34,901 bases of DNA from Candidatus Coatesbacteria bacterium (GTDB lineage: Bacteria > RBG-13-66-14): NCBI GenBank assembly GCA_014728185.1, contig WJMB01000027.1, forward strand, positions 1-34,901. Direction: 5' to 3'. Below the pieces are notes generated by a model. It was not told the DNA's origin. It was given only the letters and a program-made list of their open reading frames with translations, and made no database searches. Shown here piece after piece: positions 1,447 to 18,656 of this stretch. Position 1 is the stretch's first letter. Each line of letters begins with the position of its first letter. A program made the translations under genes and the position numbers.

Positions 1447-1526
1447 ATTCAATTGCTCTGGACACCGCCGTCGTCGGAAACTTTTGCCAAACCTGTATTA
1501 CAATGGTTCTCGCCTTGGTCCGGCTT

Positions 1527-1541
1527 TGGCACGTTTATTGC
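1527..1541 (+). promoter_or_regulatory. sigma-54 (-24/-12)-like site, TGGCACG-TTTA-TTGC
   Basis: Exact match to the RpoN core consensus TGGCACG-N4-TTGC, followed by A. It lies in the left inner arm of the palindrome, about 215 nt upstream of the purM ATG. Function is untested. Confidence 0.35.
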
Positions 1542-1584
1542 AGCAGGGCGGGTGGCGGTTTCGGACATCCGGCGTCGGATCTAC

Positions 1585-1599
1585 GCAATAAACGTGCCA
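1585..1599 (-). promoter_or_regulatory. sigma-54 (-24/-12)-like site on the minus strand, facing the site at 1527-1541
   Basis: The reverse complement of 1585-1599 reads TGGCACG-TTTA-TTGC. It points leftwards toward the PhzF-family gene 3' end. Confidence 0.3.
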
Positions 1600-1755
1600 A
1601 AGCCTCGTCGCCGGTGTTCAGGATGCTTCACCAGCTCCAGAGCGGTTTGGCAAAGGTTTCAGAGTGCGATCGCCATGACTTGTTTTATGTATTACAATGG
1701 ATTGACTCTTCAGACTCTTAGACAAACGTGCTCTTAGCCAAACGTGGAGCAAACG

Positions 1756-2790
1756 ATGATCCCCGACCCCTACAAATCCGCCGGTGTCGACGTCCGGGCC
1801 GGTGAGGCTTTCGTCAAGAACATCGCCCCCCTGGCCGAGGCCACCAGCATCCCTGGTGTGGCCGCCGGTCTGGGCGGCTTCGCGGCGGCCTTCGACACCA
1901 AGGCGGCGGGCCTCAAGGACCCCGTCCTGGTCTCGGCCACCGACGGCGTGGGCACCAAGCTTCTGGTGGCTATCCGGGCCGGTGTCCACACCACTGTGGG
2001 CATCGACCTGGTGGCGATGAGCGTCAACGACGTGCTGACGGTGGGCGCCCGGCCGCTGTTCTTCCTGGACTACTTCGCCACGGGGAAGCTGAAGCCGGAG
2101 CGGGATCGAGAGGTCTTGCAGGGAATCAGCCAGGGCTGCCTGCAGGCGGGCTGCGCGCTGATCGGCGGCGAGACCGCCGAGATGCCGGGGGTGTACAGGG
2201 AGGGCGATTACGACCTGGCGGGATTCGTCGTCGGGGCCTTGGAGCGCGGCACGGAGCTGGGTCCGCGGCGGGTGCGGGAGGGGATGGCCCTGGTGGGCCT
2301 GGCCTCGAACGGCCTGCACTCGAACGGCTTCTCGTTGGTGAGGAAACTGGTCTTCGAGGAAGCGGGCTTGGGGCCCGGCGACGTGGTCGAGTTCCTCGGG
2401 CGCAGCGTGGCAGACGAGCTGCTGGCGCCGACGCGGATCTACAGTAAGCTGCTGCCGCTGTTCCGCAAGCACCAGACGGCGGCTATGGCGCATATCACCG
2501 GCGGCGGCCTGGCGGACAACCTGTCCCGGGTTGTTCCGGAGGGAATGCGCGCCGTCCTGCACCGCGACGCTTGGCCCCGCCCCCGGGTCTTCAACTGGCT
2601 CAAGGAGTTGGGCGGTTTGAGCGACGACGAACTCGAGGCGGTCTTCAACTGCGGTTTGGGCTTGATCGCCGTGGTCCCGGAGAAGAAGGCTGCGTGGCTG
2701 ATCGAGGATCTCTCGGCGGCGGGCGAGTTCGCCTACCGGGTGGGCGAGGTTTCGGCGTCGCAGGAGCCGCCCCGCGCCGTGGTGGTCTAG
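1756..2790 (+). CDS. purM: Phosphoribosylformylglycinamidine cyclo-ligase (AIR synthetase)
   Basis: The product MIPDPYKSAGVDVRAGE...GGFAAAF...LVSATDGVGTKL...DLVAMSVNDVL...GGETAEMPG...HSNGFSLVRK is the PurM family signature. ATG 1756 is preferred over the track's GTG 1744 because GGAG (1746-1749) sits 6 nt upstream. Confidence 0.92.
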   Translation: MIPDPYKSAGVDVRAGEAFVKNIAPLAEATSIPGVAAGLGGFAAAFDTKAAGLKDPVLVSATDGVGTKLLVAIRAGVHTTVGIDLVAMSVNDVLTVGARPLFFLDYFATGKLKPERDREVLQGISQGCLQAGCALIGGETAEMPGVYREGDYDLAGFVVGALERGTELGPRRVREGMALVGLASNGLHSNGFSLVRKLVFEEAGLGPGDVVEFLGRSVADELLAPTRIYSKLLPLFRKHQTAAMAHITGGGLADNLSRVVPEGMRAVLHRDAWPRPRVFNWLKELGGLSDDELEAVFNCGLGLIAVVPEKKAAWLIEDLSAAGEFAYRVGEVSASQEPPRAVVV

Positions 2791-4460: not shown

Positions 4461-4958
4461 ATGAGTGAACTGACCGTCAAGGAGGCTCTGGAGATCGCCA
4501 TCAAGAGCGAGACCCGGGCCAAAGAGCTCTACGAGAAGATATACGAGAACGTCACCAATCTGATGATGCGCGACAAGCTCAAGTTTCTGGCCTCCGAGGA
4601 GCAGCGCCACCATGACCTGCTCACCGGCGTCTACACCGAACAGATCGGCGGCGAGCCCACCGAGCCCGACCCCAATCTGCTGCCCAAGATGCAGATCGAT
4701 GTCGACTTCGACCGAGCCGAGCTGACCGACCTCTGGCAGGCGGCCATGCAGGCCGAGGAGGTCTCCGCCGAGCACTACGAGATGCTCACCGGCCGGGTCT
4801 CCGGCCGCGCCCGGGTGATGTTCAACTACCTGGCCAACGTCGAACGCAGCCACTATTATCTGCTCAAGAGCGAGTACGACGTGCTGGCCGAGATCGACGA
4901 GTACACCCGCACCGACGACGACCCCTTCGGGCTGAACATGATCAACCTCGGTCCGTAG
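4461..4958 (+). CDS. Ferritin-like / rubrerythrin-family diiron protein (165 aa)
   Basis: A four-helix-bundle-type sequence with paired E...ExxH motifs (ETRAKE...SEEQRHH and QAEE...NVERSHY). GGGAGG lies 6 nt before the ATG. Confidence 0.75.
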   Translation: MSELTVKEALEIAIKSETRAKELYEKIYENVTNLMMRDKLKFLASEEQRHHDLLTGVYTEQIGGEPTEPDPNLLPKMQIDVDFDRAELTDLWQAAMQAEEVSAEHYEMLTGRVSGRARVMFNYLANVERSHYYLLKSEYDVLAEIDEYTRTDDDPFGLNMINLGP

Positions 4959-4986
4959 CCTTCGTGATCCAGCCGATTGGTCAATG

Positions 4987-5016
4987 AAACGGGACCGGCT
5001 CCGCCGGTCCCGTTTT
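4987..5016 (+). terminator. Rho-independent terminator
   Basis: AAACGGGACCGGC-TCC-GCCGGTCCCGTTT is a perfect 13-bp stem followed by T, 29 nt after the stop of the ferritin-like gene. Confidence 0.7.
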
Positions 5017-5112
5017 CATCTCTTTCACGACCGAACCCGATGGCGCGCCGAGCGACCTTCGCCAAACAGGTCCCCGGCGGACGAAGCCCGTCGGTCCGCC
5101 GAGGCCCGGCTT

Positions 5113-5127
5113 TGGCACGTTTCTTGC
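5113..5127 (+). promoter_or_regulatory. sigma-54 (-24/-12)-like site, TGGCACG-TTTC-TTGC
   Basis: Exact RpoN core consensus in the left inner arm of copy 2. It points into the 3' end of a minus-strand gene, so an mRNA promoter role is doubtful. Confidence 0.3.
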
Positions 5128-5168
5128 GCAGGCGGACGTGGCCTGCCGGATAGGCGGCGGGCGACTCC

Positions 5169-5183
5169 GCAAGAAACGTGCCA
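5169..5183 (-). promoter_or_regulatory. sigma-54 (-24/-12)-like site on the minus strand, facing the site at 5113-5127
   Basis: The reverse complement reads TGGCACG-TTTC-TTGC. It points into the terminator and 3' end of the ferritin-like gene. Confidence 0.3.
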
Positions 5184-5388
5184 AAGCCGCCGCGGGAGGA
5201 GTGGTTTTCGAGTGAACCGTTTGGCGAAGGTCGCGGGCACCGGTGGGATGGCGGTTAATGTATGACGCAGGGGATGCAACAGCTCCAGATATTGCGCGTC
5301 CCAAAGGGTTTGTTCATTGCATGTGCAATCGTACTCACCCCGGGCGGCTCGGCGGTGCCGGGCAGCTTCCCGCGCCTTGAGGTGTCGT

Positions 5389-6045
5389 TCAATCGATGAT
5401 CGAATCCGGCCCCGGAACTTCCAGGTCCCGTTCGCCCTTGGGGGCCAGGCGGCTGAGCTCCGCGAGGGCCTCGAGGCCCCGGGGCGGGCGGCCGTTTGTG
5501 CGTTCGAGGCGGGCCAGCTCCCGGCGTATCCAGCGTCGGATGCTCTGACCGAGGACCCACATATAGAGGTAGCGTCCCGTGGTGAACTGGCGGGCGACGG
5601 AGGCGGCCCGGCGGCGGGCCAGTTTGGGATCGCGCTCCCGGTAGGCGCGCAGGGTCTCGCGATAGCCCCGCCATTCGAAGAGCGCCCGCAGTGTCAGGCC
5701 CAGGGGCAGGGGCAACAGCAGGTAGCAGATCAGGAAGGGGGCGAGGCCCAGGCGGCGCTGGTCCAGCAGATGCACGGCCTCGTGGCGCAGCACCAGGTAG
5801 CCTGCCCGGGTGTCGAGCAATCTGCGGGCCAGGTAGACGGTGCCGTTCCAGGTGAAGGCGTCGAAGCCGGTCAGCCGGACGCCGAGGGGCCGGCCCAGGG
5901 CGTCGAGGAGCCGCACCCAGCGGCTGTCTTCGAGGACGGCCAAACGGAAGGGGATGATCCGGCCCAGGGCGCGCGTCAGGGCGCGGAAGGGGGCGTAGGG
6001 ACGTCGCCGGGCGGGGTTGCTGTCAACGATTTTCTGCTTCGCCAT
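5389..6045 (-). CDS. Hypothetical membrane protein with an HExxH motif (218 aa)
   Basis: ATG start. LRHEAVHLLDQ is an HExxH motif, followed by a hydrophobic segment (LGLAPFLICYLLLPLPLGLTL). The composition is protein-like, unlike the surrounding shadow ORFs. No family was recognised with certainty. Confidence 0.6.
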   Translation of the reverse strand: MAKQKIVDSNPARRRPYAPFRALTRALGRIIPFRLAVLEDSRWVRLLDALGRPLGVRLTGFDAFTWNGTVYLARRLLDTRAGYLVLRHEAVHLLDQRRLGLAPFLICYLLLPLPLGLTLRALFEWRGYRETLRAYRERDPKLARRRAASVARQFTTGRYLYMWVLGQSIRRWIRRELARLERTNGRPPRGLEALAELSRLAPKGERDLEVPGPDSIID

Positions 6046-15693: not shown

Positions 15694-16431
15694 ATGGGAC
15701 AGAAGACCCACCCCACCGGATTCCGCCTGGGCTACATCAAGCCCTGGAAGTCCCGCTGGTTCGCCCGCGGCGACGTCTACCGCAAGCAGCTACACCAGGA
15801 CCTGCGGCTGCGCACGGAGCTCAAGCAGCGCTTCTACGGCGCCGGCATCAGCTCCATCGAGTTCGAGCGTCTGCCCAACCTGGTCACCATCATCCTGCGC
15901 AGCAGCCGCCCCGGGATCATCATCGGCCGCAAGGGCTCCCAGGTCAACGAGTTGCGTGACGAGCTGGCCGCCCGACTGGGCAAGCCGGTCAAGGTGCTCA
16001 TCGACGAGGTGCGCTCCCCGGAGACCGACGCCCAGCTCGTGGCCGAGAACGTCGCCCAGCAGCTCGAGAAGCGCATCAGCTTCCGCCGGGCGATGAAGAA
16101 GGTCCAGGAGGCCGCCCTGCGCCGCGGCGCCCAGGGGGTCAAGATCATCTGTTCGGGACGCCTGGGCGGCGCCGAGATGAGCCGCTCCGAGCGCTACATC
16201 TCCGGCCGCGTGCCCCTGCACACCCTGCGCGCCGACATCGACTTCGGCCTGGCCGAGGCCCGCACCACCGCCGGCCGCATCGGCGTCAAGGTCTGGATCT
16301 ACCACGGCGAGAAGCTGCCCGGCACCGAGGGACTCACCGGCGCCGAAATCAACGCCCCCCGCGGCGACGGCCACGGCCGACGCCGTCGGCCGCCCCGAGG
16401 CGACCGACGCGGCGGCGGTAAGAGGAGATAG
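15694..16431 (+). CDS. rpsC: 30S ribosomal protein S3 (with R/G-rich C-terminal tail)
   Basis: [23 protein letters not shown]...[12 protein letters not shown]. The tail is [22 protein letters not shown]. Confidence 0.96.
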
Positions 16432-16433
16432 CG

Positions 16434-16838
<405 letters not shown>

Positions 16839-17766: not shown

Positions 17767-18086
17767 TGTCCCGTCCGACCAGACTGCGCAAGGGCGATAC
17801 CGTCCAGGTCCTCACCGGTGAGGACAAGGGCAAGCGCGGAGAGATTCTCAAGATCGATCTCGAGAAGCGCCGCGCCATCGTCCAGGGTATCAATTTCGTC
17901 AAGAAGCATCAGCGTCAGACCCGCCAGGACGTCCAGGGCGGCATCATCGAGCTCGAGGCGCCCGTGGCCCTCTCCAATCTGATGCGCGTCTGTCCCAAGT
18001 GCGGCAAGCCGACCCGGATCGGCGTCGCGCGCAAGGACAAAGAGCGTAAACGGGTCTGCAAAGGCTGTGGAGCCGAGAGCGAGTAG
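17766..18086 (+). CDS. rplX: 50S ribosomal protein L24 (Zn-ribbon-containing form, 106 aa)
   Basis: GTG 17766 overlaps the rplN stop (TAGTG). The product has LRKGDTVQVLTGEDKGKRGEI (KOW motif) and a C-terminal CPKC...CKGC. Confidence 0.9.
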   Translation: MSRPTRLRKGDTVQVLTGEDKGKRGEILKIDLEKRRAIVQGINFVKKHQRQTRQDVQGGIIELEAPVALSNLMRVCPKCGKPTRIGVARKDKERKRVCKGCGAESE

Positions 18087-18095
18087 GAGGCAGGC

Positions 18096-18656
18096 GTGAG
18101 TCCACGTCTCAAGGAAATCTACGAAACCAAGGTCCGGCCGGCCCTCACCAAGCGCTTCGGCTATACCAACCCGATGCAGGTTCCGCGGCTGACCAAGATC
18201 GTGCTCAACCGGGGCATCGGCGACTCCAAGGACAACCCCAAGTCCGTCGAAGGCGCCATGGAAGAGCTGACCGCGATCACCGGACAGAAGCCGGTGCTGA
18301 CCAAGGCCAAGAAGTCCATCGCCCAGTTCAAGATCCGCGAGGGCTTCATCGTCGGCTGTCGAGTCACTCTGCGCCGCGCACGGATGTACGAGTTCTTCGA
18401 CCGTCTGGTCAACCTCTCCCTGCCGCAGATCCGCGACTTCCAGGGCGTGGGCGACCGCTCCTTCGACGGCCGGGGCAACTTCAACCTGGGCCTGCGCGAG
18501 CAGTTGATCTTCCCCGAGATCAACTACGACGACATCGCCCAGATCGCCGGTCTGACCGTTACCATCTGCACCAACGCCCCCAACGATGAAGAGGCCAAGG
18601 CGCTGTTGGAGGAATTGGGCATGCCCTTCGCCAAACCCACCGCGGCGAAGGCCTGA
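18096..18656 (+). CDS. rplE: 50S ribosomal protein L5
   Basis: [34 protein letters not shown] start with GGAGG upstream. Confidence 0.96.

Follow-up and report, generated by a model that had tools for sequence, protein, structure and literature searches.

Dispersed palindromes such as the REP, BIME and ERIC elements are common, and what maintains them is rarely clear. Here, we describe two nested palindromes, termed copy 1 and copy 2, in a stretch of 34,901 nt from a Candidatus Coatesbacteria bacterium (contig WJMB01000027.1 of assembly GCA_014728185.1; "the window" means this whole stretch). Both belong to a previously undescribed family of nested DNA palindromes of about 190 bp, and a literature search with the arm sequence, for sigma-54 palindromic repeats and with the sample accessions found no description of it. 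The family has the extragenic location, the high copy number and the bias towards gene 3' ends of the enterobacterial REP/BIME elements, which also occur in either orientation and show compensatory changes in their stems. Some REP/BIME elements bear a site for a host DNA-binding protein, such as IHF (in RIP and RIB units) or gyrase; here, the site corresponds to the sigma-54 promoter code. In contrast to REP/BIME, however, the family lacks a GTAG/GTGG head and an association with a RAYT, it is much larger (about 190 bp) and nested, and conservation is confined to a 20-bp arm that matches the sigma-54 consensus, the other parts having diverged to nearly random sequence.

REPIN-RAYT systems resemble the family in their inverted doublets, their long hairpins, the lack of a target-site duplication and their long persistence in a lineage. 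REPIN copies, however, are alike over their full length and are accompanied by decayed variants, whereas the family conserves only its arms, and no decayed ones were found. Membership of the classical REP/REPIN type was rejected: a GTAG-type head was not found beside either stem of the family copies, and the only Y1 transposase seen in the lineage is flanked by another REP. This RAYT/IS200-like transposase of 157 aa (HLHLL ... YIWENPIRKGL) is encoded at 1584-2057 of locus L034, an AT-rich stretch in a GC-rich sister genome, and its flanks (1400-1500 and 2040-2390) hold GTAG-headed classical REPs, GTAGGGGAGGACCTTCAGGTCCTCC and GGCCGACCTGAAGGTCGGCCCCTAC, including GTAGGGG, which amount to about three sites in 0.47 Mb of the lineage. 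A distant relative (L088, 16585-20085) encodes a restriction-modification-like protein of 1166 aa with a Y1_Tnp domain, and REP-like hairpins CAAGGGGCTGAAGCCCCTTG lie at 16418-16595 and 17981-18134.

The ERIC, Correia (CREE) and RPE MITEs are likewise intergenic imperfect palindromes of 100-200 bp, present in tens to hundreds of copies, which can bear promoter or protein-binding motifs and fold in transcripts. Their terminal inverted repeats are conserved and they duplicate a target such as TA, whereas the outer stems of the family vary freely. Direct repeats at the outer-stem ends do not exceed a shuffled-partner control, some outer stems are unrelated in sequence, and no solitary outer arm was found beside a transposase in the 0.47 Mb. 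With no target-site duplication, variable ends and no parent insertion sequence (IS) found, membership of the MITEs was also rejected. Canonical sigma-54 (-24/-12) promoters share with the arms the exact YTGGCACG-N4-TTGC and substitutions that avoid GG, CAC and TTGC. The family sites, however, always lie face-to-face in a perfect hairpin, are anchored at gene ends with no nearby enhancer-binding protein, and number more than 120 in one small genome. A further possible likeness is to the single-stranded DNA (ssDNA) hairpin promoters Frpo of the F plasmid and ssi of IncI1, in which the hairpin rebuilds a duplex promoter and the stem ends where melting starts. The family stem stops exactly at the -12 TTGC, but the plasmid promoters are of the sigma-70 type, reside in single copy on conjugative plasmids and act on transferred strands. 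Integron attC sites (R''/R' boxes RYYYAAC / GTTRRRY, cassette arrays, integrase) were rejected, given that the outer arms end in ..GCCAAAC / GTTTGGC.. with a fourth base that is not Y/R in most copies, and that the copies are scattered among syntenic housekeeping genes. Intrinsic terminators were rejected for want of a U-tract after the stems, and parS, CIRCE and other operator look-alikes on account of their spacing.

In both window copies an inner inverted repeat is nested within an outer one, as seen by direct reading and with a repeat finder. Copy 1 spans 1474-1663 and copy 2 spans 5052-5234, and they are composed of the following parts:

1474..1493, no strand: outer-stem left arm of copy 1 (TCGGAAACTTTTGCCAAACC), 90% complementary to 1644-1663, in a stem with compensatory changes throughout the family

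1494..1521, no strand: short spacer of copy 1, including TGTATTACAATGG; in the family about 32 nt and unconserved (38% identity)

1522..1541, plus strand: inner arm of copy 1, sigma-54 consensus rightwards (GGCTTTGGCACGTTTATTGC); arms 96% identical over 52 aligned copies

1542..1584, no strand: asymmetric 43-nt core of copy 1, class A (AGCAGGGCGGG...ATCTAC), with semi-conserved ends (57%) and a nearly random centre (33%)

1585..1604, minus strand: inner arm of copy 1, sigma-54 consensus leftwards (direct reading, motif match, repeat finder)

1605..1643, no strand: long spacer of copy 1 with a small hairpin (folding and family comparison)

1644..1663, no strand: outer-stem right arm of copy 1 (repeat finder)

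5052..5072, no strand: outer-stem left arm of copy 2 (GCGACCTTCGCCAAACAGGTC), 21 nt, 90% complementary (repeat finder)

5107..5128, plus strand: inner arm of copy 2 (CGGCTTTGGCACGTTTCTTGCG; direct reading, motif match, repeat finder)

5129..5167, no strand: 39-nt core of copy 2, class B; its ortholog in a sister genome has the reverse complement

5168..5189, minus strand: inner arm of copy 2 (direct reading, motif match, repeat finder)

5214..5234, no strand: outer-stem right arm of copy 2 (repeat finder)

The inner arms are perfect inverted repeats, of 20 bp in copy 1 and 22 bp in copy 2, and the outer arms, of 20 and 21 nt, are complementary at 90% in both. This agrees with the nested anatomy given in the first-pass annotation, including its outer repeat of 17 bp with one T.G. 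Read on their own strands, the inner arms have the sequence TTGGCACGTTT(A/C)TTGC. The exact TGGCACG-N4-TTGC occurs four times in the window, and these matches are the four inner arms, each of which carries the exact sigma-54 consensus that had been noted earlier for those of copy 1. Folded as RNA, copies 1 and 2 are far beyond shuffled sequences (z = -5.4 and -8.7), and the inner modules folded as DNA, on either strand, give z = -6.8 to -8.1 versus shuffles.

Species-representative genomes were scanned for face-to-face TGGCAC-N5-TTGC pairs, and most of the matches listed came from one metagenome-assembled genome (MAG), 'uncultured bacterium SRP141376_co4_264' (CAZOOP01), which is close to the window with 92-96% DNA identity over 8 kb. 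About 0.43 Mb of this MAG was sampled and contains at least 64 family copies with the same anatomy. Therefore, the window palindrome is not a product of chance, and the earlier suggestion of a family instead of an accident is borne out. Each copy begins with an outer stem of 13-24 bp, whose consensus is ..GACCTyNGCNrAAC. A spacer of about 32 nt, the short one, leads with CCCGGCG at its 3' end to an inner arm (GGC(G/T)TTGGCACGTTTCTTGC), an asymmetric core (37-45 nt) and the second, inverted inner arm. Next come CGCCTCCCC and the long spacer, which measures about 44 nt and contains a small hairpin, and then the other half of the outer stem. The core exists in two classes, and one of its ends is nearly always ..YTCC. 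The length of the element is about 185-200 bp and is tightly kept: measured from the inner 14 nt of one outer arm to those of the other, it amounts to 172-186 nt.

Pairwise identity among the 52 aligned copies amounts to 96% in the inner arms, 63% in the outer stems, 57% at the core ends, 38% in the spacers and 33% in the core centre, with a random expectation of 28%. These values indicate that the copies are old and that nothing but arm sequence, pairing and spacing has been retained. The arm variants (TTTA, TTTT, CACA, GGTTTT and GCCCTT) are always mirrored in the partner arm. When the 20-mer arm was searched with up to five mismatches in all loci, including the 0.47 Mb of the lineage, every family arm differed at two positions at most, and no decaying copy was found. 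After masking of the copies, the exact sigma-54 matches left in the 0.47 Mb comprised three further copies, one partial copy at the edge of a locus and one ordinary single site; two of these three copies have cores of 72-74 nt and could not have been selected by the original pattern, yet their arms are exact. A selfish repeat with saturated spacers should leave dead copies, and since none are seen, selection appears to act locus by locus. The copies thus appear to be old and kept by selection at each locus, which preserves the geometry, the strict Watson-Crick pairing of two helices and the inner-arm sequence. The two long cores (L021, 1963-2066; L024, 4594-4695) start with TTGCTAT and may represent a third core class or an insertion. 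At 1-100 of L074, the outer stem (GGACCTTCGCCGAAC ... GTTCGGCGAAGGTCC) and the usual short spacer ending in CCCGGCG are found without inner arms or core, as an empty or deleted form of the family.

The copies are stable between sister species. Copy 1 has an ortholog between PhzF and purM in L083 (89% DNA identity), with the unusual variant TTTATTGC in both arms, and copy 2 has one in L044 (92% DNA identity); orthologous sites in two sister species are therefore occupied and stable across 89-92% DNA identity. L083 to L086 represent a third relative, from Andean microbial-mat metagenomes, with 89% DNA identity and a purM that is 90% identical. Further away, locus L100 (RpoA 79% identical) contains three elements of the same architecture with diverged arms. 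The secY|adk site is occupied only in L100 when compared with the window lineage, and such differences in occupied sites imply that copies have been gained or lost. The secY|adk spacer of L100 is 690 nt long, versus 130 nt in the window, and has degenerate tandem GGGGCTGGATT units at 5640-5760. No element is found in the syntenic DNA of more distant relatives (purM 65-70% and RpoA 65-67% identical; L087 to L091, L104 and L105), no family copy was found in the viral contigs searched, and a query of the JGI metagenome collection with a single-arm 20-mer returned seven unrelated single promoters and no family member. According to searches with purM and RpoA the lineage is deep-branching, with an RpoA at most 51% identical to those of Eisenbacteria, Thermoanaerobaculia or Myxococcota; with such a deep and distant placement, the presence of rpoN is not to be deduced from taxonomy. 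Look-ups of the purM and rubrerythrin proteins of the window for exact matches yielded no record.

The substitutions in the arms follow the recognition code of sigma-54. About 130 family arms either match its consensus exactly or vary only at -30 to -26, -20, -19 and -16, and GG (-25/-24), CAC and TTGC are invariant across all pooled lineages. L100 had been retrieved by way of RpoA and thus independently of the motif. Its arms, GGAGTTGGCACGGTTTTTGC, GGAACTGGCACGGTTTTTGC and GGAACCGGCACGGTTTTTGC (pattern GGARYYGGCACGGTTTTTGC), are each perfectly mirrored and, relative to the window lineage, have fixed changes at -29, -19 and -16 and polymorphic positions at -28, -27 and -26. Two of the eight variable positions are among the 11 specified by the consensus; for two or fewer we calculate p ~0.04. 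These two, -26 and -20, are single-copy variants, at what we take to be weaker specified positions. We estimate the chance that a conserved arm matches all 11 specified positions at about 1e-5 per family. Elsewhere, the same 20-mer is an ordinary single promoter (L092 and L095), with a bacterial enhancer-binding protein (bEBP) gene 1 kb away in L092. On the basis of the substitution pattern, the L100 arms, these single promoters and the chance estimate, the arms are most probably constrained by sigma-54 or something of the same specificity. Loss of the GG/GC dinucleotides in further copies had been proposed beforehand as a sign of an ordinary REP/MITE hairpin; no copy, including the three motif-independent ones of L100, loses GGCAC or TTGC, a result in favour of the motif.

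Some other pairs of sigma-54-like sites were met during the scan. In Flexilinea sp. (L009, 3942-4012; L038, 4394-4465), perfect palindromes with 21-bp arms read G(G/C)GGCTGGCAC-N5-CTTGC, with ACTTC or GATGC as N5, around cores of about 30 nt that begin with G.GGCGGA, and one of them lies between a stop codon and an intrinsic terminator. In this other phylum, a family of like design may thus exist independently; being selected by the pattern, these palindromes provide no independent test. At 30-310 of L079 (Gemmatimonadaceae) and in L093, units TTGGCACG-N4-TTGCA and CGTGCCA(A/G)G alternate densely, so that sigma-54-like sites lie both back-to-back and face-to-face at distances of a few tens of nt. 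The 'face-to-face' pairs of Comamonadaceae (L011, L014, L019, L020, L030, L032, L037, L043, L054 and L055) are about 86 nt long, conserved and non-palindromic; they were discarded as ordinary single sigma-54 promoters, since the second 'site' appears to be formed by the first codons of the downstream gene (ATGACCGCGCAAGAACAGTGCCAC).

The pairing itself is kept. RNAalifold recovers both helices from the 52-copy alignment, with 98.2% of the cells paired, as opposed to about 40% in slid controls. Double-sided changes are present in 134 cells versus 38.5 in shuffles, a number that none of 500 shuffles reaches, and there are only six G-U cells. The outer stem is nearly perfect in 55 of 62 copies despite widely differing sequences, with a median helix score of 16 versus 7 when flanks of different copies are combined. 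This strict Watson-Crick symmetry, together with an orientation that is random relative to the genes, argues for pairing at the DNA level, and a strand-specific RNA is unlikely. The symmetry could be caused by hairpins on either strand, by a cruciform or by the correction of quasi-palindromes through template switching.

The copies are intergenic and scattered among syntenic, unrelated housekeeping genes. Most (41/55) lie between tandem genes, the others between convergent (7/55) and divergent ones (7/55). For 28 of 53 copies, only 0-27 nt separate the stop codon of a flanking gene from the beginning of the outer stem, and occasionally the two overlap slightly. The next start codon may be as close as 13 nt or more than 1400 nt away. 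This anchoring at 3' ends is a REP-like placement and not that of a promoter. Core orientation and flank asymmetry show no correlation with gene direction.

The core can also be inverted with respect to its surroundings. Between copy 2 of the window and its ortholog in L044, flanks and arms are collinear and nearly identical, whereas a 41-nt stretch of the core matches as the reverse complement at 38/41 positions and collinearly at about 22/41. Flipping of the core accounts for the fact that a given core orientation is found with either flank asymmetry among the family copies, both combinations being common (23:13 in class A). In four samples of the L083 species a single core orientation is found at both copies, and thus there is no sign of rapid phase variation. 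RecA-independent strand or template switching at palindromes is a sufficient cause of rare flips. Within the explanation that we prefer below, such flips quite possibly occur on an evolutionary time scale and merely follow from the palindromic structure.

In the window, copy 1 is placed after a PhzF gene and before purM (1756-2790), and copy 2 lies between convergent genes, 3' of a canonical terminator. Two signals outside the elements are relevant:

1670..1698, plus strand: sigma-70-like promoter TCGCCA-17-TACAAT between copy 1 and purM, with TATTACAATGG kept in the ortholog L083

4986..5026, plus strand: canonical intrinsic terminator that serves the rubrerythrin gene (4461-4958) and lies 5' of copy 2 (terminator scan)

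The first-pass annotation had proposed a role specific to purM, with a sigma-54 leader of about 200 nt. This is not supported: purM has its own sigma-70-like promoter located between the element and the gene, and the proposal is further weakened by the position of copy 2 between convergent genes, by the anchoring of the family at the 3' end of the upstream gene and by the lack of a nearby bEBP or rpoN gene. On our preferred reading, the element is not a dedicated or conventional purM promoter. Neither does the mutually exclusive binding of two polymerases, as once put forward, follow for closed complexes, with an inferred distance of about 40 bp between the two -12 elements. A 13-nt direct repeat, TGTATTACAATGG, occurs at 1494-1506 in the short spacer of copy 1 and at 1688-1700 just 5' of purM; the latter unit provides the -10 TACAAT of the sigma-70-like promoter, and TATTACAATGG is retained at both places in L083. 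Just 5' of the purM start, at 1724-1758, three CAAACG(T/A)(G) units (ACAAACGTGC, CCAAACGTGG and GCAAACGATG) resemble PurR-box half-sites and are not conserved in L083. After neither the inner nor the outer stem of the window copies is there a T-run, and the terminator scan calls the separate 4986-5016 instead.

Taken together, we tentatively favour an element that is maintained by the host, acts at the DNA level irrespective of its orientation and, like REP/BIME, marks gene ends or boundaries. A protein with sequence specificity, in all likelihood sigma-54 RNA polymerase, would dock with high affinity at its paired arms; without an activator the polymerase would sit as a closed complex and not fire, and any transcript reading through the element would bear a very stable hairpin. 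A bolder version of this is speculative and rather unlikely: more than 100 perfect sigma-54 docking pairs, face-to-face at gene ends, would hold parked holoenzyme in activator-independent closed complexes and serve as a genome-wide boundary or insulator and not as an initiator. The holoenzyme might then even bind the extruded hairpin, with the stem end at the -12 fork junction, and the flippable core could possibly set a direction.

Several points weigh against the favoured reading. An RpoN box search and a tblastn search with E. coli RpoN found no such protein in 0.78 Mb of loci, of which about 0.47 Mb belong to this lineage and constitute a minority of the genome, so that the result neither proves absence nor lends support; an lptB-like match in L022 was rejected as an ordinary ABC-2 transporter. 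The GAFTGA motif and tblastn with a bEBP fragment revealed no AAA+ bEBP at a distance of up to about 4 kb from more than 60 copies, though the same tests are positive in the unrelated loci L066 and L092. Only one ordinary sigma-54-like site was found in the sampled sister genome, the intergenic CTGGCACACCCTTTGCAT at 2565-2583 (+) of L034, which by itself hints at sigma-54 use. The binding of sigma-54, or of any protein, is deduced from sequence only, and sigma-54 recognition leaves three features unaccounted for: the TTT that never varies in the arm spacer, the covariation of the outer stem and the conservation at the ends of the core. Furthermore, terminator-like hairpins precede both window copies, which are therefore not needed there as terminators, and in L100 a copy lies in the secY-adk spacer only 30 nt 5' of adk, an awkward position for a strong transcription block. 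Finally, genes in the related loci were called with our own caller, based on GC content at third codon positions (GC3). As to the L034 site, it is about 100 nt 5' of an open reading frame with a ribosome-binding site, encoding a repeat protein with recurring AWHP motifs, and has an AT-rich palindromic stretch upstream.

The element could instead be a selfish, non-autonomous mobile hairpin, similar to a REPIN, PATE or MITE and moved as an ssDNA hairpin by an enzyme that recognises the inner arm and the unpaired core ends, the sigma-54 match being coincidental or secondary. The high copy number, the intergenic positions after genes in either orientation, the strictly Watson-Crick hairpins on both strands, the lack of a target-site duplication (as in HUH-type elements) and the sites occupied differently in the window lineage and L100 (secY|adk) are all in line with this idea, and a Y1 (RAYT-like) transposase is present in the lineage. 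This RAYT, however, is flanked by a different, GTAG-headed REP, and a parent IS with the outer arms was not found in the 0.47 Mb. Mobility also does not easily account for saturated spacers without decayed copies, for the stability at orthologous sites or for substitutions that follow the sigma-54 logo across lineages, the match having such a small estimated probability of arising by chance. We consider this explanation unlikely, though of real weight. The REP/MITE-like element and the closed-complex roadblock, which the first-pass annotation gave as alternatives, are closer to the evidence than the promoter it put in front. A function at the RNA level is quite improbable: a small structured RNA, or a hairpin in the 3' untranslated region that terminates transcription or keeps 3' exonucleases off the mRNA. 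The latter mode of action is known from REP and ERIC elements, and the very stable predicted fold, the covarying helices and the start 0-27 nt after the stop codon in half of the copies fit such a role. Only six G-U cells against 134 double changes, however, speak against RNA, and core and flanks are oriented at random to the upstream gene; as they occur in both relative orientations, there is no constant RNA product. Moreover, no U-tract follows either stem, a stabiliser does not need a sequence-conserved stem of 20 bp, and in the Rfam search of the window only tRNAs pass the gathering threshold, with nothing over the elements at E < 5.

Activator-dependent sigma-54 promoters firing both ways, with the plus-strand site of copy 1 giving a leader of about 200 nt to purM, are very unlikely. 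The exact consensus in every arm speaks for them, as do the co-directional downstream gene on one side in 41 of 55 copies and the conserved core blocks beside the arms, which we reckon to span about -11 to +1. Nevertheless, no bEBP is encoded near the copies and no rpoN was found in the 0.47 Mb; it is the distance to the upstream stop that is tight and the distance to the downstream gene that is broad; convergent genes flank seven copies, among them copy 2 and the copy orthologous to it; and, besides purM having a promoter of its own, the neighbours are unrelated housekeeping genes. Two independent promoters would also not need mirrored changes at non-critical spacer positions. The least credible possibility is an inverton-like switch, in which the arms are recombination sites and a flip of the core sets the productive direction. 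The core that is reverse-complemented between orthologs with collinear flanks, and the commonness of both configurations (23:13 in class A), would agree with it. Yet no recombinase gene lies beside the copies in the inspected loci, the orientation is the same at both copies in four samples of one species, template switching explains rare flips without any function, and known invertases need more than 39-45 bp for synapsis.

In this family, everything is near random except the geometry, the pairing and a 20-bp arm, and the immutable positions of this arm are the -24/-12 code of sigma-54, also in a second lineage that was found independently of the motif. A vague 'REP-like repeat' thereby becomes a sharp hypothesis, in which sigma-54 holoenzyme, or a protein of the same specificity, would occupy more than 100 pairs of sites located where genes end. 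If this is true, sigma-54 would have a structural, non-initiating role, and the site of a host protein would be riding on, or building, a repeat family. If it is false, a repeat driven by a transposase or by structure would be mimicking a promoter consensus, and regulons predicted from motifs in uncultured lineages would have to be viewed with caution.

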